From contig JBDHHR010000001.1 of NCBI GenBank assembly GCA_039589295.1, positions 127,558-191,557 on the forward strand: 64,000 nt of DNA, given 5' to 3'. The notes beneath the pieces were generated by a model. The model was not told where the DNA came from. It did not search any database and saw nothing but the letters and a program-made list of their open reading frames with translations. This stretch comes from Gemmatimonadota bacterium (GTDB taxonomy: Bacteria > Gemmatimonadota > Gemmatimonadetes > Palauibacterales > Palauibacteraceae). Shown piece after piece: positions 51,697 to 58,841 of this stretch. Made by a program: the position numbers and the translations under genes. The first letter of the stretch is position 1. Every line of letters begins with the position of its first letter.

Positions 51697-52557
51697 TCAA
51701 GCCTCCGCCGTGTGCCCGTCAGGCGGTGCCGCGGGTGTGGGGGCGAGGCTTCCGGTCAGCCATTGCTGAAGGTTCCTCCACGTATTCACACCCTGGCGGT
51801 CCGCCGCTGCCAGCAGGCGCAGGAGGATGCTCGCCGTCGCCCTCGCGTCTCCACCCGCCCGGTGCCGACCCACGATCTCGACGTCGTAGAAGCGGGCCAG
51901 CGAGTCCAGTCCCCGCCGGCGCAGGCCCGGCAGGGCCCGCCGCGCCAGCTTCACCGTGCAAAGCCGGGGACCTGAAGGCAGCAGCGATCGCGAACGCCTC
52001 ATTTCCTCAGCCACGAATCTCCAGTCGAAGCCCACGTTGTGGGCGACGAAGACTCTCCCGCGCAGGTTCTCCTGCACGACTCCGGCGACATCCTCGAAGC
52101 GCGGCGCGCCAGCCACCATCCCGGAATCGATGCCGGTCAGCCGGCTCACCCAGCGGGGAATGGCAAGGCCCGGATTGACCAGAGACTCGAACTCCCCGCT
52201 GACGCGCCCGCCGCTCACCTGCACGACCGCGATCTCCACTATCCGTGCGCCGCGCGTAACCGAGCTGCCGGTGGTTTCCACGTCCACGACCGCATAGTCC
52301 AGCTCGTCGAGTTGCGTATCCACGCCCAGCGACGGAACGGCCGTCAGCCGCCACACGCCCTGGCGGTCTACTTCCACCCGGCGATCCGTCCCCAGCAATT
52401 CATACACCAGTCGCGAAGCCAGTCCCGGAGGAGCCTGTTTCAGGCCGAAGACGGTTCGCGCCAGCACCTCTGTCGGCATCGGCGTTCCGCGGATCGCACT
52501 CAGGGCTCGCTGTACCAGGCTGGAGTCCGCCGCGAAATCCAACCCCGGTCCGGTCAC
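51697..52557 (-). CDS. DnaQ-like 3'-5' exonuclease domain protein (DEDDh) with N-terminal extension
   Basis: Exo I motif YAVVDVETTG, then HNVGFDWRF, then the Exo III region H...GGDARAT. It has a roughly 90 aa N-terminal region of unknown function. It overlaps the rex stop (ATGA). Confidence 0.75.
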   Translation of the reverse strand: MTGPGLDFAADSSLVQRALSAIRGTPMPTEVLARTVFGLKQAPPGLASRLVYELLGTDRRVEVDRQGVWRLTAVPSLGVDTQLDELDYAVVDVETTGSSVTRGARIVEIAVVQVSGGRVSGEFESLVNPGLAIPRWVSRLTGIDSGMVAGAPRFEDVAGVVQENLRGRVFVAHNVGFDWRFVAEEMRRSRSLLPSGPRLCTVKLARRALPGLRRRGLDSLARFYDVEIVGRHRAGGDARATASILLRLLAAADRQGVNTWRNLQQWLTGSLAPTPAAPPDGHTAEA

Positions 52558-53207
52558 GCCTTCTCCCCCGAGCCGTTCCCACCACTGGAGGAGAGCAGGA
52601 AGCTGAGACCTTCCAGCTCGAGAGACACGTCCATCGATCGCACAACGACATGCGGGGCCACTTCCAGCTTCACCGGAGCGAAGTTGAGGATCGCCGGGAC
52701 GCCAGCCGCGGCTGCCCTGGAGGCCACGCTCTGAGCTGAGTCAGGCGGCGTGGCGATGATGGCGATGTCGACCCGCGCTGACGCCAGGTCCGCCTCCAGC
52801 GACGCAAGCGAGCGGACTCGGACGCCCCCGAGCTTCTCGTCCACCTTGACGGGATCCGAGTCGAAGGCGGCGACGATATCGAATCCCCGCTGCGTCAGAT
52901 CGCCATAGCCCAACAAAGCCGAGCCGATCTTCCCCACCCCGATGACGGCGACGTGCCATCGGCGGCCGAGCCCGAGAATCTCCCGCAGTGAGCGCCTGAG
53001 CTCCGACGCCACGTATCCCTGTCCTCGCTTGCCGAACGACCCGAAGTGGCTCAGATCCTTCCGGACCTGGGCGGCCGTCGTGCCCGTTCCTTCCGCGAGC
53101 TCGCGGCTGGAGACAATGTCCTTCCCCACCCGCTCGAGATCCCGCAGGAACCGCAGGTAGCGGGAGAGCCGCCGGACCGCCGAGTCGGAGATTCTTTTTC
53201 TCGTCAT
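52554..53207 (-). CDS. rex: Redox-sensing transcriptional repressor Rex
   Basis: ISDSAVRRLSRYLRFLRDL winged-helix N-terminus (cf. B. subtilis Rex IPQATAKRLPLYYRFLKNL) and a Rossmann domain (HVAVIGVGKIGSALLGY). The long N-terminal extension of the track ORF was trimmed. Confidence 0.85.
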   Translation of the reverse strand: MTRKRISDSAVRRLSRYLRFLRDLERVGKDIVSSRELAEGTGTTAAQVRKDLSHFGSFGKRGQGYVASELRRSLREILGLGRRWHVAVIGVGKIGSALLGYGDLTQRGFDIVAAFDSDPVKVDEKLGGVRVRSLASLEADLASARVDIAIIATPPDSAQSVASRAAAAGVPAILNFAPVKLEVAPHVVVRSMDVSLELEGLSFLLSSSGGNGSGEKA

Positions 53208-53215
53208 GCACCGGC

Positions 53216-53233
53216 TTGTGAAAGTGTTCACAA
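53216..53233. promoter_or_regulatory. Rex operator (ROP box)
   Basis: TTGTGAAAGTGTTCACAA is a perfect match to the Rex consensus TTGTGAA-N4-TTCACAA. It lies 9 nt upstream of the rex start codon. Confidence 0.7.
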
Positions 53234-53275
53234 AAAGATAGCCGGGGGCAAACCCGATCTCAACACGGGATTCCG

Positions 53276-54127
53276 TCAGTTCTCCGGGGAAGATGGCGGT
53301 GCCTTCAGAACACCTCCCGGGTCCGCCATCTCCCGTTCCAGACGGTCGGCGAGAGCCACAAAATCCGCCGGTGTGAGCTGCTCCGGCCGGAGGCTGGCGG
53401 CGAGGTTGACGTCGGCCAGCACAGCCTCGGCAAGATCTTGAGTCAGCCCGTACGCGGGCGAGGTCCGCAGGATGCTCTGCATCTGCTTGCGGCGCATGGA
53501 GAACGCGGCGCGGGTCAGCCGGCGGAGGGAACCTATCTCCTCTCGGGACAGACACGGGGAACCTGGTTCGATAACGACGGCGGCGGAATCCACCCCCGGC
53601 ACCGGCCGGAACGCATGGCGACCGACACGGAAAGCGACTCGCGCCGAAGCACGCGCCTGTATACCCACCGTGAGTGCGCCAAAGGTCCGGGAGCCGGGCG
53701 AGGCGGTTATCCGATCCGCCACCTCCCGCTGCACCAGCACGACCATCCGCCGGGGAACCGGCAGAACCTCGAGGAAGCGGAACAGCAGCGGGGATGTAAT
53801 GGCGTAAGGCATGTTCGAGATGATTCGCAGGGGCTGCCGGCCCGCTACCAGAGATGTCAGATCGCACTCGAGCGCGTCGGCATGGACGAGCTCGACGTCA
53901 TCCCGCGCGCCCAGACCGGCGGCCAGTTCCGAGCACAGCCGGTCGTCCTTCTCCACTAGGATCAGGGTCCCGGCGCGTTCGGCCAGGATCTCGCTGATCT
54001 CCCCGTGCCCCGGCCCAACCTCCAGCACAACGTCGGCCGGCCCCGGCCCCAGCGCGTCTACCAGCTTGCGCCGAATGTTGGGGTCCGAAAGGAAGTTCTG
54101 GCTGAGTGACTTCTTTGCCCGTACCAC
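53276..54127 (-). CDS. rsmA: 16S rRNA (adenine1518/1519-N6)-dimethyltransferase
   Basis: KSLSQNFLSDPNIRRKLVDAL...VLEVGPGHGEISEIL is KsgA. Confidence 0.9.
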   Translation of the reverse strand: MVRAKKSLSQNFLSDPNIRRKLVDALGPGPADVVLEVGPGHGEISEILAERAGTLILVEKDDRLCSELAAGLGARDDVELVHADALECDLTSLVAGRQPLRIISNMPYAITSPLLFRFLEVLPVPRRMVVLVQREVADRITASPGSRTFGALTVGIQARASARVAFRVGRHAFRPVPGVDSAAVVIEPGSPCLSREEIGSLRRLTRAAFSMRRKQMQSILRTSPAYGLTQDLAEAVLADVNLAASLRPEQLTPADFVALADRLEREMADPGGVLKAPPSSPEN

Positions 54128-54131
54128 TCGG

Positions 54132-55649
54132 TCACTTCACCACGAGCGCCGTGCGATCGTCCGCCGATACTCCGCCGGGCGCACACGCCAGTTCGAAGAG
54201 CCCGTCCAGTATCGCCTGTGCCCCGGAGTCCGATCCCTCGAGCGCTACGGCGGTCAGCTGATCGTCGGACCAGAGCTGGTCCGTGCGCAGGCACTCGCTG
54301 ACGCCGTCCGTGAACATAAGGAGAGTATGGTCTCCTGGTCGCCACTCCACCTCGCGCTGCGCGTAGGAGTCGAACTCGGCGATCCCGAGCGGTGGGTTGA
54401 GCGCCTCGAGGCGTACCGCCTCCTCGGGACCGATGCGATACGCGTGGGGGTGGCCCGCGTTCGCATATCGCAGGACCTGTGTATCAGCGTCGATCACTGC
54501 GTAACACAACGTCATGTACATCTCCGTCGACTCGAGCTTCCGAACCAGCTCGTGGTGGATCCCCTTCAGAACCTCCGCCGGCTGTTCCTCCTCACTCACT
54601 ACCAGGGACGCGGCGCTCATCGTGAGCGCCATGATCAGGCCGGCCGAGTAGCCATGCGAGCTGACATCTCCCAGCATCACGCCCAGGCGGTCTCCCGGAA
54701 GCCTGAAGAAGTGGTAAAAATCACCGCCGACGGACTCTGCCGGCTCGCACCGCGCTGCCACGTCAGCGAGCGACTTGAAGTCGCCGAGTTCCGGCAGGAG
54801 CTTGAGTTGCAGGTGATGGGCCAGTTCCAGCTCGACCAACATCCGCTCCTGCTCCAGGCTCTCGCGTACCAGCCGGCCGTTCTCCATCGCCGCCGCGAGA
54901 TGACTGGCGATAGCTGCGGCCAGATTCACGTCCGCCTGTGAGAAACTTTCCCGACCCGCACCCCCGCGAAGGCTCAGTACGCCCACGGCATGCGACCGGC
55001 CGTGCAGCACCGAATGTCGCACCGGAACGGCGAGAAAAGGCCTCGCTTCTTCCTCGCCGTCCGCGCCAGGCGCCGCATCCCTGACGAACTTGGTGTGGGT
55101 CGAGTACACGTCCGCGATCGGAGATCGGCCGTCTCCCAATGGAACGCGGTCGGGGTGCACCGGCTCGGTGCCTCCCGAGGCGTAGACGGTAAGCTCACGT
55201 TCTCCTTCGTCGGGAACCCACAAGGCGGCGAGGTCGGCCTCCATCACCTCCATCACGTGGTCCAGGAGCTGACCCGCGGCTCTCTCCAGGTGAATGATGG
55301 AACCGAGCGTCTCACTGATGGACGTGAGGAGAGCGATCTCTTCGTACCGTTCAGCGAGCTCCTGGCTGAAGAAGTGCGCCTCCCGCTCCGAGGCGACCAG
55401 CCGGCAAAGCGACTCGCGCAGGAGATCGCGGCTCACCTTCCATTCGGCGCCGGTCGACGGACCTACTGCGACCCGGACGGCGACAGCGGGTGATACCGTC
55501 CACGTCTCCTCGATGAACTCGCTCCCGGCCGTGTTGCCCAGTGAGTCATGAAGGATGACCGGCCCCCCCTCGCCCTCCAAGACCGCCCGGAAGGGCAAGC
55601 CTGAAAGCTTGCGAAACGCAGCCAGGTACTCGCTGACCCGAGTCGTCAT
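54132..55649 (-). CDS. GAF-domain PP2C-type serine phosphatase (RsbU/SpoIIE-like)
   Basis: N-terminal GAF-like region and a C-terminal PP2C/SpoIIE domain (GDFYHFF, MLGDVSSHG, TDGVSE). The start was trimmed to MTTRVSEYL. Confidence 0.8.
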   Translation of the reverse strand: MTTRVSEYLAAFRKLSGLPFRAVLEGEGGPVILHDSLGNTAGSEFIEETWTVSPAVAVRVAVGPSTGAEWKVSRDLLRESLCRLVASEREAHFFSQELAERYEEIALLTSISETLGSIIHLERAAGQLLDHVMEVMEADLAALWVPDEGERELTVYASGGTEPVHPDRVPLGDGRSPIADVYSTHTKFVRDAAPGADGEEEARPFLAVPVRHSVLHGRSHAVGVLSLRGGAGRESFSQADVNLAAAIASHLAAAMENGRLVRESLEQERMLVELELAHHLQLKLLPELGDFKSLADVAARCEPAESVGGDFYHFFRLPGDRLGVMLGDVSSHGYSAGLIMALTMSAASLVVSEEEQPAEVLKGIHHELVRKLESTEMYMTLCYAVIDADTQVLRYANAGHPHAYRIGPEEAVRLEALNPPLGIAEFDSYAQREVEWRPGDHTLLMFTDGVSECLRTDQLWSDDQLTAVALEGSDSGAQAILDGLFELACAPGGVSADDRTALVVK

Positions 55650-56446
55650 GCTTCCAGGGTCAGCGTGACGGAGTTGCCCTTCTCGTTGAAGCGGATATCG
55701 TCCGTCAGGCTGCGCAGAAGGAACAAACCTCTGCCGTGGCTGCGCCATCGATTCTCCGGACGCGTAGGGTCGCCCACGACGGACGGGTCGAAGCCCGCAC
55801 CTTCGTCGGTGATGGTGACCACGGCTGTGCCCGGACGCAGTTCGGCATTCACCCGCACGAGCTTCGCGGGATCCTCCCTGTTTCCGTAGAGGATGGCGTT
55901 GGCCAGCGCTTCACCGATGGCGACACGCAAGTTGAGCGTCGCCCGGGAACCCGTGAAAGCCATCCGCTGGCAGGCCTCGACGACCTCCGCCACGACGTCA
56001 CGGACGTAGCTGACGCTCGATGGGAACTCGAGCTCCAGGCTGGCACTCAGCCCGGACGAGCGCAGGGCGCGGGTCCCTCCCTGCCCGGCCAGGTGGCGGC
56101 GCCAGCGAAGGCCCAGCTCCGCCGGGTTGATTGGATAGAACAGGTAGTCCCCGCAGCCGGCGGCAAGAGCCGCCAGAAGCCTGTCGACCGACTCGTTGTC
56201 CACGACTGCGATCAGCTCCAAGTCCGTACCAAAGGCGAGCCTGGCCTCGCGCGCCGAGTGATCGGCGTCGGCCAGGTCGAGCAGGGCCAGACCCGGCGCG
56301 ACTTGCGGCCAGTCCGCGCGTGTGGCCGCTATGGTCGTCTCCGCTCCCAGTTGTCTGAGCTCGCGCGCGAGATCGTCTGCGACCTCCCGCCGACCGGAGC
56401 AGATCAGGACCGTCGAGCCCGGCCTCCCCATGCCGTCGGAGCTCAC
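55646..56446 (-). CDS. Receiver-like (degenerate) domain fused to an RsbW/SpoIIAB-type anti-sigma-factor serine kinase (HATPase_c)
   Basis: The N-terminal roughly 120 aa have a CheY-like topology with the Asp57-equivalent present (LLDLADAD), but they lack the DD acidic pair (VLICSGRRE) and the conserved Lys (DYLFYPINP). The C-terminal half has N-box EALANAILYGN and G-boxes TDEGAGFDP and GRGLFLLRSL. Confidence 0.7.
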   Translation of the reverse strand: MSSDGMGRPGSTVLICSGRREVADDLARELRQLGAETTIAATRADWPQVAPGLALLDLADADHSAREARLAFGTDLELIAVVDNESVDRLLAALAAGCGDYLFYPINPAELGLRWRRHLAGQGGTRALRSSGLSASLELEFPSSVSYVRDVVAEVVEACQRMAFTGSRATLNLRVAIGEALANAILYGNREDPAKLVRVNAELRPGTAVVTITDEGAGFDPSVVGDPTRPENRWRSHGRGLFLLRSLTDDIRFNEKGNSVTLTLEA

Positions 56447-56456
56447 TTCCTCCCCA

Positions 56457-56795
56457 TCAGAAGCCCGAGAGAGCCATCGCCCGCGTATCGGCGATCTGAA
56501 AAAGCGTATCCAGCTTGGTGAGCTCGAACAGCGTCCTGAGGTCTTCGTTGAGCCCCGCCAGCCGCAGGCCGCCTCCTGCTTCCCGGATCTTCTTGGACAG
56601 GCTCACCAGCACCCCCAGGCCCGATGAATCGATATAGCTGGACGCGGAGAAGTCGATGAGGAATTTCCGTTCGCCCGCGTCGAGCCGATCAAGCACGACC
56701 TGCTTGAGCTCCTGGCGGTTTCCGACGATGAGCTCGCCATCCACCGAGACGATCGTGATGCCGCTGGTTTCCGAGATCGAGAAACTCATCCTCAC
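56457..56795 (-). CDS. STAS-domain anti-sigma-factor antagonist (RsbV/SpoIIAA-like)
   Basis: 112 aa STAS with the phosphorylatable-Ser context DFSASSYIDSSGLGVLV. Confidence 0.85.
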   Translation of the reverse strand: MRMSFSISETSGITIVSVDGELIVGNRQELKQVVLDRLDAGERKFLIDFSASSYIDSSGLGVLVSLSKKIREAGGGLRLAGLNEDLRTLFELTKLDTLFQIADTRAMALSGF

Positions 56796-56819
56796 TCCTG
56801 CGTGATTGGGACGTGCTCT

Positions 56820-57785
56820 TTACGCGCCCGTCTCAGCGTGCGCCATCAAAGCGGTAATGTAGGACACGTGCACGATGTCATCGATAGAGGCACCGCGCGA
56901 CAGATCGTTCAGTGGGCGTGCGAGCCCCTGCAGAATGGGCCCCAACGCGTGTGCGCCTCCAAGCCAGCGAACCAGCTTGTAGCCGATGTTGGCAGCGTTG
57001 AGGTCCGGAAACACGAGAATGTTCGCCTGGCCGCCCAACGTCGAGCCGGGAGCCTTTCTTTCCGCCACTTCGGGGCTCAAGGCGGCGTCCGCCTGAAGCT
57101 CTCCGTCGCAGATCACGTCCGGGCAACGGCCGCGGAAGATCCGCATCGCCTCCCGCAGCCTCGTGACCGACTCACCGACGGCGGAGCCGTAGGTCGAGTA
57201 AGAGAGGAACGCCAGGCGCGGCGCGTCGCCCACGATCACACGCCTGGCCCGGCAGGCCGCCTGTGCAATATCCGCCAGCTGAGTCTCCGTCGGGTGAGGC
57301 ACGACCGCAGCATCGGCGAAGGTGAGTACGCGTTCCGGCTCGCGCCCGCGTGCCGGGATAATCATGTAGAAGGACCCCGATACGGTTCGCATGCCCGGTT
57401 CCGTGCCGAGGACCTTCAGTCCGGCCCGAACCACATCTGCGGTCGAGCTCTGCGCTCCGGCCACAACCCCGTCCAGCACTCCAGCCTTCATCAGCGCCAC
57501 GGCTATGTACAGCGGCTCCCGGGCGCTCTCCCCGAGAGAAGCCGGCAGGTGCATCCTTGCTGCCTTTCCCACTCCGCGGTCTGCGGGTTCGAGCAACTCG
57601 AGGTCCGGCAGATCATGCAGCAGGTCGGCCACCTCGTCGAGCTCCTCAACCAGGACAGGACGGATTCCGCCGTTCCGGTAGAGCCGACGGATTGCTTCGC
57701 GGGTCCTCACCTCCCGGGCCTCGGGGAATCCCAGCCGTACCGCTCTCCGGGCTGCTCGGCTCTCCAGGTCGGAGAGGAAGCTCAT
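56820..57785 (-). CDS. pta: Phosphate acetyl/butyryl-transferase (PTA_PTB family)
   Basis: Conserved PTA_PTB core (FLSYSTYGS, ILVFPDLNAANIGYKLV, SRGASIDDIV). The start was trimmed to the Met overlapping the coaD stop (ATGA). Confidence 0.8.
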   Translation of the reverse strand: MSFLSDLESRAARRAVRLGFPEAREVRTREAIRRLYRNGGIRPVLVEELDEVADLLHDLPDLELLEPADRGVGKAARMHLPASLGESAREPLYIAVALMKAGVLDGVVAGAQSSTADVVRAGLKVLGTEPGMRTVSGSFYMIIPARGREPERVLTFADAAVVPHPTETQLADIAQAACRARRVIVGDAPRLAFLSYSTYGSAVGESVTRLREAMRIFRGRCPDVICDGELQADAALSPEVAERKAPGSTLGGQANILVFPDLNAANIGYKLVRWLGGAHALGPILQGLARPLNDLSRGASIDDIVHVSYITALMAHAETGA

Positions 57786-58285
57786 CCCGTTCCGGACGCC
57801 TGCCCGTAACGTCGCTGCAGTCGGACGAGCACCGGCGCCGGCACGAAGCGGGACACGTCGCCTCCCAGACTGGCCACCTCCCGCACGAGGGACGAGCTGA
57901 GAAACGTGTAGCTGCTCGCCGGGGCCATGAAGATTACCTCGATCTCCGGCCACAGCGAACGGTTCATCAGGGCCATCTGGAACTCGTACTCGAAATCGCT
58001 GACGGCTCGCAGGCCTCTTATGATCAGGCGGGCTGCACGCTCGCGGGCGAAGTCCACCAGCAGCCCCGAGAACGAAGCGACCTCCACCCGCGGCTCGTCC
58101 TCGTACACCTCCTGCATGACCTCGACGCGTTCTTCGACCGAGAACGCCGCAGCCTTCTCCTGCGTGGCGGTTCCCGCCACGGCCACGATGAGTCGATCAG
58201 CGAGCTTGAGGCTCCGACGCACGATGTCGTCGTGGCCCAGAGTCAGCGGATCGAACGAACCGGGGTAGATGGCGATTCGCAGGTT
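57782..58285 (-). CDS. coaD: Phosphopantetheine adenylyltransferase
   Basis: IAIYPGSFDPLTLGHDDIV (H/T-x-G-H). The start was trimmed and is probably non-ATG. Confidence 0.85.
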   Translation of the reverse strand, partial: NLRIAIYPGSFDPLTLGHDDIVRRSLKLADRLIVAVAGTATQEKAAAFSVEERVEVMQEVYEDEPRVEVASFSGLLVDFARERAARLIIRGLRAVSDFEYEFQMALMNRSLWPEIEVIFMAPASSYTFLSSSLVREVASLGGDVSRFVPAPVLVRLQRRYGQASGTG

Positions 58286-58841
58286 AGTCTCCAACTGATG
58301 CTCCTCCCGCGCCTGCCCGAAAGAAGGACAGGATGGTGTCACCGTACCGGCGGCGCCAGGCGGGCGCTACCTCTGTCGGGTCGGCGGGACCATGCTCCAC
58401 GCACAGGAGGCCCGCGAAGGGTGACTTCACGAAGCGTCTCACCAACCGGTCCGCACCTTCGGACTCGTACGGTGGATCCGCCAGCACGATGTCGAATTCG
58501 TGATCGACCGTGGACAACCGACTGACGAAACTCAGGGCCTCTCCCCGGGTCACCTGTGTCCGCTGCTCCACGTCCAACGCGTGCAGGTTCCTGCGTAGGA
58601 CCGCGCACGCTCGGCGGTCCGCTTCCACGAAATGAACCTTGGAAGCGCCGCGCGACAACGCCTCCAGGCCTAGAGCGCCGCTGCCGGCGTACAGATCGAG
58701 CACCCGGGCTCCGGGCAACGCCCCTCCGAGAGCGCTGAACCACGCCTCCCGCACCACCTCCCGCGTGGGTCGTGTCTCGCGCCCCGGCGGCGCCTCGATG
58801 CGGCGCCCGCCGAACTCGCCGGCAACGATCCGCAGGCTCAC
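58284..58841 (-). CDS. rsmD: 16S rRNA (guanine966-N2)-methyltransferase
   Basis: RIVAGEFGGRRIEAPPGRETRPTREVVREAWFSAL...VLDLYAGSGALGLEALSRGA...DPPY. The start was trimmed to a GTG after the recJ stop. Classic rsmD-coaD pair. Confidence 0.8.
   Translation of the reverse strand: MSLRIVAGEFGGRRIEAPPGRETRPTREVVREAWFSALGGALPGARVLDLYAGSGALGLEALSRGASKVHFVEADRRACAVLRRNLHALDVEQRTQVTRGEALSFVSRLSTVDHEFDIVLADPPYESEGADRLVRRFVKSPFAGLLCVEHGPADPTEVAPAWRRRYGDTILSFFRAGAGGASVGD

Follow-up and report, generated by a model that had tools for sequence, protein, structure and literature searches.

What can a receiver-like domain contribute to an RsbW-type kinase once most of the residues needed for its phosphorylation are gone? 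This question is raised by a locus in a 64,000-nucleotide stretch of contig JBDHHR010000001.1 from a Gemmatimonadota bacterium (the whole stretch, positions 1–64000, is called here the window), in which the open reading frame (ORF) 55646–56446 on the minus strand encodes an RsbW-like kinase with an additional N-terminal domain. The N-terminal ~120 residues of this protein are an evolutionary derivative of the two-component receiver, by fold as well as by descent. We regard as probable the whole reading favoured below, namely that a receiver-derived pseudo-receiver is carried by an RsbW-type kinase, which serves as the kinase component in a partner-switching module of three genes, and that it plays there an accessory role independent of phosphorylation.

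Residues are numbered from the GTG codon at 56446. Most homologues begin at a Met that corresponds to residue 6, and therefore the ATG at 56431 is probably the true start, from which the ORF yields a 261 aa form identical to the database protein P0001. The ORF comprises the following parts:

55646–56446, minus strand: pseudo-receiver plus RsbW-like GHKL Ser kinase/anti-sigma-type protein, whole ORF (266 aa from the GTG at 56446)
56090–56416, minus strand: pseudo-receiver domain, residues ~11–119, (βα)5 fold with a very short α2 (AlphaFold2, Foldseek, profile matches)
56390–56401, minus strand: β1-α1 loop C16-S17-G18-R19, replacing the metal-binding x-D-D-x (homologue columns, alignments)
56276–56278, minus strand: D57, the equivalent of the phospho-acceptor Asp, kept (113/113 homologues)
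56198–56203, minus strand: V82-D83, replacing the conserved Thr/Ser and the small residue that follows it (D83 invariant)
56132–56137, minus strand: Y104-P105, replacing Lys109-Pro110 (Pro invariant)
56045–56089, minus strand: Gly/Arg-rich inter-domain linker, residues 120–134 (lower predicted local distance difference test (pLDDT) score, 62–70)
55649–56044, minus strand: RsbW/SpoIIAB-type Bergerat (HATPase_c_2) domain (Pfam PF13581, invariant columns, alignments)

Fold and ancestry of the N-terminal domain

The AlphaFold2 model of the kinase ORF, built on 64 homologues, has a mean pLDDT of 87.6 and exhibits the order of secondary structures β1-α1-β2-(short α2)-β3-α3-β4-α4-β5-α5, followed by a low-confidence Gly-rich linker (aa ~120–134) and the Bergerat domain. 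The pLDDT exceeds 85 over most of residues 7–114, which assume the fold of a receiver. The Foldseek search of the PDB with the full model identified as the first match LvrC (9QIH, E = 2e-19), a protein composed of a receiver (REC) and a Bergerat domain; SpoIIAB and RsbW rank after LvrC for the C-terminal half, and the N-terminal half matched many receivers (DrrB, BqsR, VbrR, Spo0F; template modelling score 0.7–0.77, root mean square deviation 2.2–2.8 Å). The preliminary description of this DNA, aligned by eye, had placed a CheY-like domain at the N-terminus of an RsbW-like kinase, and this assignment is supported by the (βα)5 fold of the model, by its alignment with receivers and by the PF13581 match of the remaining part.

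The profile searches led to the same result. The profile of the full-length family, compared with the PDB, identified LvrC (1e-17), RsbW (2e-13) and SpoIIAB, followed by ~35 receivers with PrrA at the top (E = 6e-9), and the profile of the N-terminal domain alone, run against 5.8 billion proteins, matched exclusively PF00072 proteins, i.e. KdpE-like receivers (best E 1.6e-5); the latter search did not recover the pseudo-receiver family itself and is uninformative with respect to other architectures. The homology to receivers is visible with family profiles only. The Pfam scan of residues 1–133 matched zero families at E ≤ 10, Response_reg (PF00072) included, a precomputed PF00072 match exists for none of 120 homologues of the kinase ORF, and the NCBIfam model of the response regulator NblR scored 21 bits against residues 12–114. 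Membership in PF00072 or in the minor pseudo-receiver Pfam families (e.g. FleQ, PF06490) was rejected on the grounds of the Pfam result, which sets the domain apart from pseudo-receivers in general. Because the domain is invisible to Pfam, such proteins are annotated merely as 'ATP-binding protein' or 'RsbW'.

The remodelled phosphotransfer site

The register of the five phosphotransfer residues, i.e. the acidic pair (DD1 and DD2), the acceptor Asp (D), the Thr/Ser (T) and the Lys (K), was set by three independent alignments, made with phmmer (to RegX3), with MAFFT (including CheY, Spo0F, PhoB and full-length homologues whose receivers are canonical) and with the family hidden Markov model (to PhoB). 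All three gave one register, with DD1 at S17, DD2 at G18, D at D57, T at V82, T+1 at D83, K-3 at Y101, K at Y104 and K+1 at P105. The motifs LICSGRRE, LALLDLADAD and DYLFYPINP are all present in the translation, and the codons were read directly: S17 (TCC, 56398–56396), G18 (GGT), D57 (GAC, 56278–56276), V82 (GTG), D83 (GAC, 56200–56198), Y104 (TAT, 56137–56135) and P105 (CCA). The catalytic quintet thus reads S, G, D, V, Y, with four of the five residues lost (DD1, DD2, T and K) and the acceptor Asp alone kept. The preliminary description had noticed the retention of the Asp57 equivalent (in LLDLADAD) and the loss of the acidic pair (SG for DD) and of Lys109 (in YLFYPINP); its register, drawn by eye, is borne out by all three alignments, and the pocket had not been mispositioned. 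Two further departures escaped it, the loss of the Thr (V82) and the presence of a bulky and invariant Asp at T+1. The Pro at D+4 and the Gly at D+8, both typical of receivers, are lost as well.

The pattern is fixed in the family, as revealed by a survey of 113 homologues with at least 50% identity. D57, D83 and P105 are present in all of them and S17 in 101; position 18 is occupied by G, S, D or A, and R19, directly after the former acidic pair, is found in 102 homologues and at ≥90% also in distant pseudo-receiver clades. Position 82 is V (100) or A (13), and position 104 is H (39), Y (35), L (23) or F (15) and never K. Since these substitutions are fixed across the family, they do not represent random decay. 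The invariant or nearly invariant positions of the domain are D57, D83, F103, P105, E110, W46, W115 and H118. By column entropy, the domain is most conserved in β4-α4-β5-α5 (0.27 bits in β5) and most variable in α1-β2-α2 (2.1–2.3 bits), and the mean pairwise identity is 0.54 for the N-terminal domain versus 0.71 for the kinase domain. Judging from these columns, the N-terminal domain is a diverged pseudo-receiver under purifying selection.

A pseudo-receiver has been defined as a domain with the fold and ancestry of a receiver that lacks one or more of the five phosphotransfer residues (Bourret et al. 2025, PMC12632262); a small residue at T+1 is needed for access to the site, and metal and phosphoryl group are both bound through DD, T and K (PMC12632262). 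The domain in the window agrees with this definition in fold, ancestry and loss of residues, and therefore it is a pseudo-receiver, as the preliminary description had proposed; the four lost residues are accompanied by an operon devoid of a histidine kinase gene. The class of aspartate-less receivers (Maule et al. 2015) was considered and rejected, because the Asp is kept.

Two Cys residues are also well conserved: C16 (56399–56401), just before the S-x-R motif, in 92 of the 113 homologues, and C98 (56153–56155), which stands where the G-A-x-D-Y motif usually has Ala or Val, in 100. They are expected to lie far apart according to the topology of receivers. A Cys-based phosphatase P-loop, for which the conserved C16-S-x-R19 might be taken, was rejected, as the motif is CX2R and not CX5R.

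The kinase domain and the partner-switching operon

Pfam analysis of the whole ORF revealed HATPase_c_2 (PF13581, residues 141–263, E = 4e-26, 92 bits versus a cutoff of 27) together with a weak HATPase_c match, and nothing else. The ATP-binding motifs characteristic of the RsbW/SpoIIAB type are conserved, i.e. the N-box (E..NA..YGN), G1 (DEGAGFD) and a G2-like motif (HGRGLFL), with E174, N178, D209, G211, G213, G233, R234 and G235 invariant, and the domain is alignable to RsbW (6M36) and LvrC (9QIH). The scores against the NCBIfam equivalogs are far under the cutoffs (RsbW 36 versus 145, SpoIIAB 32 versus 135), and the NCBIfam RsbA match on the C-terminal half is likewise sub-threshold. On the strength of its motifs the protein is apparently an intact Ser kinase of the RsbW/SpoIIAB type. 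It is flanked by two genes:

56457–56789, minus strand: single-domain STAS gene (RsbV/SpoIIAA-like anti-sigma antagonist), upstream (PF01740, TIGR00377)
54132–55649, minus strand: GAF-PP2C (SpoIIE/RsbU-type) phosphatase gene, downstream (GAF and SpoIIE domains)

The STAS protein (110 aa) matches the anti-sigma antagonist model TIGR00377, and its DSSGLG motif is aligned with the phosphorylatable Ser56 of RsbV. Its gene ends 10 nucleotides before the GTG of the kinase, the stop codon of which overlaps the ATG of the phosphatase (ATGA, 55646–55649), suggesting translational coupling of the latter two. The phosphatase (505 aa) has intact PP2C motifs; the mechanically called ORF, with its start at 55748, is too long by 33 codons (55649–55748). 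The locus thus combines in one operon a STAS protein with the Ser, a GHKL Ser kinase and a PP2C phosphatase, i.e. the components of a partner-switching module. No histidine kinase gene was found in the operon or within 8 kb on either side. Scans for consensus promoters and terminators revealed nothing beyond chance within the STAS-kinase-PP2C cluster.

Distribution, synteny and gene fusions

The close homologues of the kinase ORF come exclusively from metagenome-assembled genomes of Gemmatimonadota. Among the 80 genome loci retrieved, 51 have a co-oriented STAS gene and kinase at the same place, flanked, where the contig is long enough, by coaD, often pta, the GAF-PP2C gene, ksgA and usually rex. 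The neighbourhood corresponding to window positions 53276–58342 (minus strand) is shared by the loci L001–L039, L041–L042, L044–L045, L047–L048, L050, L054, L056, L058, L062, L070 and L080. The presence of the module in the same housekeeping setting across the orders of Gemmatimonadota suggests a core regulatory switch, common to the phylum.

The kinase gene itself varies. In ~40 of the 51 loci (Longimicrobiales, Gemmatimonadales and others) it encodes a short RsbW of ~145–160 aa and follows the STAS gene too closely for an N-terminal domain to fit in between. The 261-aa form with the pseudo-receiver, as in the window, is found in six loci (L001–L006), and in four others a single ORF of 610–800 aa comprises the pseudo-receiver, the kinase, usually GAF, and PP2C:

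L007, 5959–7812: single-ORF fusion
L008, 5989–8382: single-ORF fusion
L009, 5133–7538: single-ORF fusion
L037, 5956–8358: single-ORF fusion

The same fusion occurs in the representative proteins P0121, P0122, P0126, P0128, P0131, P0132 and P0134, and both the 261-aa and the fused forms exhibit the signature S/T-x-R, D, hydrophobic residue plus acid, aromatic residue-Pro. The fusions provide a Rosetta-stone link between the adjacent kinase and phosphatase genes of the window, which argues that the two proteins act together physically. There are also fusions of a short RsbW with GAF and PP2C that lack the pseudo-receiver (P0143, P0146 and P0155, ~680 aa).

With a sensitive search, full-length homologues of ~270–290 aa with the canonical DD, D, T and K residues (P0142, P0161, P0165 and others) were identified among 1.84 billion representatives. 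The loci from Nitrospinales and Acidobacteriota encode receivers detected by Pfam (Response_reg, 65–108 bits), with neither STAS nor PP2C genes as neighbours; PF00072 receivers are carried by the relatives L075, L059 and L043. In L075 (4918–6666, a Nitrospinales metagenome-assembled genome) the canonical REC-RsbW gene (Response_reg 108 bits) is located directly downstream of a gene for a CheX-type phospho-Asp phosphatase, an arrangement consistent with true phosphorylation of that receiver. Degeneration of the receiver is seen elsewhere in the REC-RsbW superfamily, too. In the Acidobacteriota loci, including Pyrinomonadaceae (L040, L046, L049, L051–L053, L061, L066 and L068), a provisional alignment reveals often D-N-D together with non-canonical T and K columns, and to judge by these columns the degeneration of the receiver may have occurred repeatedly in the superfamily. 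In the neighbour-joining tree of the kinase domains all Gemmatimonadota operon kinases, both short and long, are grouped together and apart from all canonical REC-RsbW proteins, with internal branches too short to tell gain of the N-terminal domain from its loss.

Comparison with known systems

One of the nearest characterized relatives is LvrC (LIC11110, PMC13269768) from Leptospira interrogans, the best PDB match of both the model and the family profile, which likewise combines an N-terminal receiver fold with a C-terminal RsbW/SpoIIAB-like Bergerat domain in ~260–300 aa and has in common with the window kinase the segment DPTxP.N...GRG (DPTxPEN in the window kinase domain) at an overall identity of ~20%. 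However, LvrC possesses a receiver of the canonical type (D53, Y-T switch) that the kinase LvrB phosphorylates, whereas DD, T and K are missing from the window protein, which has no adjacent histidine kinase; LvrC is a proposed anti-sigma factor with no STAS or PP2C partner described, and the window kinase is encoded between the genes of such partners. In the crystal structure of LvrC the α4-β5-α5 face rests against the Bergerat domain of the second protomer; its release upon phosphorylation has been proposed (PMC13269768). TciR from Vogesella indigofera, which has been studied genetically (PMC12826045), shares the architecture of REC plus an RsbW-like domain with conserved kinase residues, but its partner is the histidine kinase TciK, and the organism lacks an RsbV homologue; the window, on the other hand, has a degenerate receiver and STAS and PP2C partners. 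According to PMC12826045, the REC-RsbW class is listed already in Galperin's census of 2006; the window protein shares with this class the N-terminal receiver fold, but lacks a canonical receiver with a cognate histidine kinase. Since REC-RsbW proteins are known from that census as well as from TciR and LvrC, and pseudo-receivers are common, the 'unusual RsbW architecture' of the preliminary description was an overstatement.

The classical systems RsbW/RsbV/RsbU-P and SpoIIAB/SpoIIAA/SpoIIE of Bacillus subtilis also comprise a kinase/anti-sigma factor, a PP2C phosphatase and a STAS antagonist whose Ser can be phosphorylated, but their kinases are only ~140–160 aa long, have no N-terminal domain and are encoded in operons that contain the gene of the target sigma factor. 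The fused homologues (P0121, P0134, L008, L009 and L037) are analogous to SypE, HsbR and Rv1364c. HsbR of Pseudomonas aeruginosa unites an RsbW-like kinase, PP2C and a receiver in one protein that acts on a STAS protein, and Rv1364c of Mycobacterium tuberculosis unites an RsbW-like kinase and PP2C with the same kind of target. The composition described for HsbR is also that of SypE from Vibrio fischeri, again with a STAS protein as the target (PMC12826045). The order of domains differs (RsbW-REC-PP2C in SypE, REC-PP2C-RsbW in HsbR), the receivers of SypE and HsbR are canonical and phosphorylated, and neither protein is known to have a GAF domain, whereas in the window the kinase and the phosphatase are encoded by separate, translationally coupled genes.

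With other pseudo-receivers (e.g. the second domain of PleD, FrzS, NblR and REC1 of ShkA) the domain shares a (βα)5 fold without the catalytic residues, the retention of the Asp (as in ~65% of them), a T+1 residue that is not small and a broken Y-T coupling (PMC12632262). Its attachment to an RsbW-type kinase is absent from the review by Bourret et al. (2025, PMC12632262). The literature searched contained no paper that ties a pseudo-receiver to an RsbW-type kinase, and none on partner switching in Gemmatimonadota. New here is a degenerate receiver in the REC-RsbW architecture, placed in a STAS/PP2C partner-switching operon; this is a modest variant and not a new type of system.

Proposed mechanism and alternative explanations

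In the mechanism that we favour, the STAS protein would be phosphorylated on its conserved Ser by the RsbW-like kinase and dephosphorylated by the PP2C, itself under the control of GAF. The pseudo-receiver would be incapable of Mg2+-dependent Asp phosphotransfer, its acceptor-site loops having been rebuilt with S/T-x-R, D and D/E in place of DD, D, T and K; this pattern suggests an Arg-Asp network (R19-D57-D83) that replaces the metal and the Lys. Conservation peaks in the α4-β5-α5 half, consistent with its use as an interface, as in LvrC, so this face most likely contacts the phosphatase or a Bergerat domain, the latter within the same chain or in the dimer partner. Such a contact could be fixed and constitutive, or it could be controlled by a partner, e.g. 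the phosphatase, and would tune the kinase or binding activity. The gating of the kinase by the pseudo-receiver, suggested in the preliminary description, is put forward as a hypothesis only.

Several observations weigh against this interpretation. An Asp is retained at DD2 in 18 of the 113 homologues, and the invariance of D57 indicates that the former acceptor site is still under selection for a salt bridge or for some kind of chemistry, a non-canonical phosphorylation being conceivable. The predicted template modelling score of the AlphaFold2 model is only 0.57, and therefore the arrangement of the domains is uncertain. No sigma factor gene was found in the operon or in the flanking stretch examined, and no output target was identified. 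Most orthologous operons in Gemmatimonadota encode a short RsbW without the N-terminal domain, which is thus dispensable for the core switch and has to be considered an accessory module.

Could the domain be a working receiver after all, with an orphan histidine kinase or acetyl phosphate as the phosphodonor of D57 in an unconventional pocket (D57, D83, sometimes D18), so as to switch the kinase? The invariance of D57 and D83 and the occasional Asp at position 18 could be read in this way, as could the phosphorylation or the kinase partners of the architectural relatives LvrC and TciR and the position of pta, the gene of the enzyme that produces acetyl phosphate, immediately upstream of the operon in many genomes. 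We consider it very unlikely, given that DD1 is Ser or Thr, the Lys never occurs, the Thr/Ser is replaced by Val or Ala and T+1 is a bulky acid; the lost residues are those responsible for binding of metal and phosphoryl group (PMC12632262), the operon lacks a histidine kinase and Response_reg finds no match even at E ≤ 10. A functional link of the domain to pta was rejected, because the adjacency is equally conserved in lineages whose RsbW lacks the N-terminal domain and is absent from several loci. At the other extreme, the domain could be a decaying, functionless remnant on its way to being lost, as it has been in most Gemmatimonadota; the many operons with a short RsbW and the faster evolution of the N-terminal domain (0.54 versus 0.71 identity) point in this direction, but an intact frame and a conserved length, maintained among over 110 homologues (identity ≥50%) and also among more distant clades, the many invariant or nearly invariant positions and the confidently predicted fold render it extremely unlikely.

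Or perhaps the pocket (S/T17, R19, D57, D/E83, S86, N107) has been repurposed to bind a ligand or a phosphoprotein, in which case the domain would be a sensor and not a passive scaffold? None of the four active-site loops has decayed, each being conserved with new residues, R19 is kept at ≥90% even across distant pseudo-receiver clades, and there is a precedent in the pseudo-receiver of ShkA, which is reported to bind c-di-GMP (10.1101/675454). On the other hand, the pattern fits equally well an internal Arg-Asp salt-bridge network that stabilises one conformation, and the conservation is strongest in α4-β5-α5 and not in the pocket loops, so that we regard this explanation as unlikely. That the pocket (S/T-x-R, D57, the invariant acidic T+1, S86 and N107) is a new sensory site for a small molecule or for the phospho-Ser of the STAS or PP2C partner seems quite unlikely as well; if true, it would supply the partner-switching kinase with an input or with product feedback independent of His-Asp phosphotransfer, and would turn the Gemmatimonadota fusions of the pseudo-receiver, RsbW, GAF and PP2C into self-contained two-input switches.

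Genomic neighbourhood in the window

The operon is surrounded by housekeeping genes, namely recJ, an rsmD-like gene, coaD and pta upstream, and ksgA, rex and genes for an RNase T-like exonuclease and a protein with the metallo-β-lactamase fold downstream. All genes identified within 50.8–64 kb are located on the minus strand. The mechanically called Rex-like ORF of 437 aa (52554–53867, minus strand) extends upstream through ksgA in another frame, and the Rex domains are matched by its C-terminal 238 aa alone (52554–53270). A terminator-like hairpin and the sole promoter-like match of the region are located at 53235–53263, between ksgA and rex. Over the window (1–64000) the guanine plus cytosine content is 63–70%, the upper value being reached in two bins at 38–42 kb, and the GC skew is negative in all 2-kb bins but three.

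Significance

The finding is incremental in itself. Pseudo-receivers constitute several percent of all receiver-like domains, and how the bacterial ones work is largely unknown (PMC12632262). The same syntenic operon without the N-terminal domain, with the pseudo-receiver on the kinase, and with all domains fused forms a natural comparison set, which extends to the distant homologues with canonical receivers, one of them (LvrC) with a solved structure, and which could reveal what the receiver scaffold contributes once phosphorylation has been lost.

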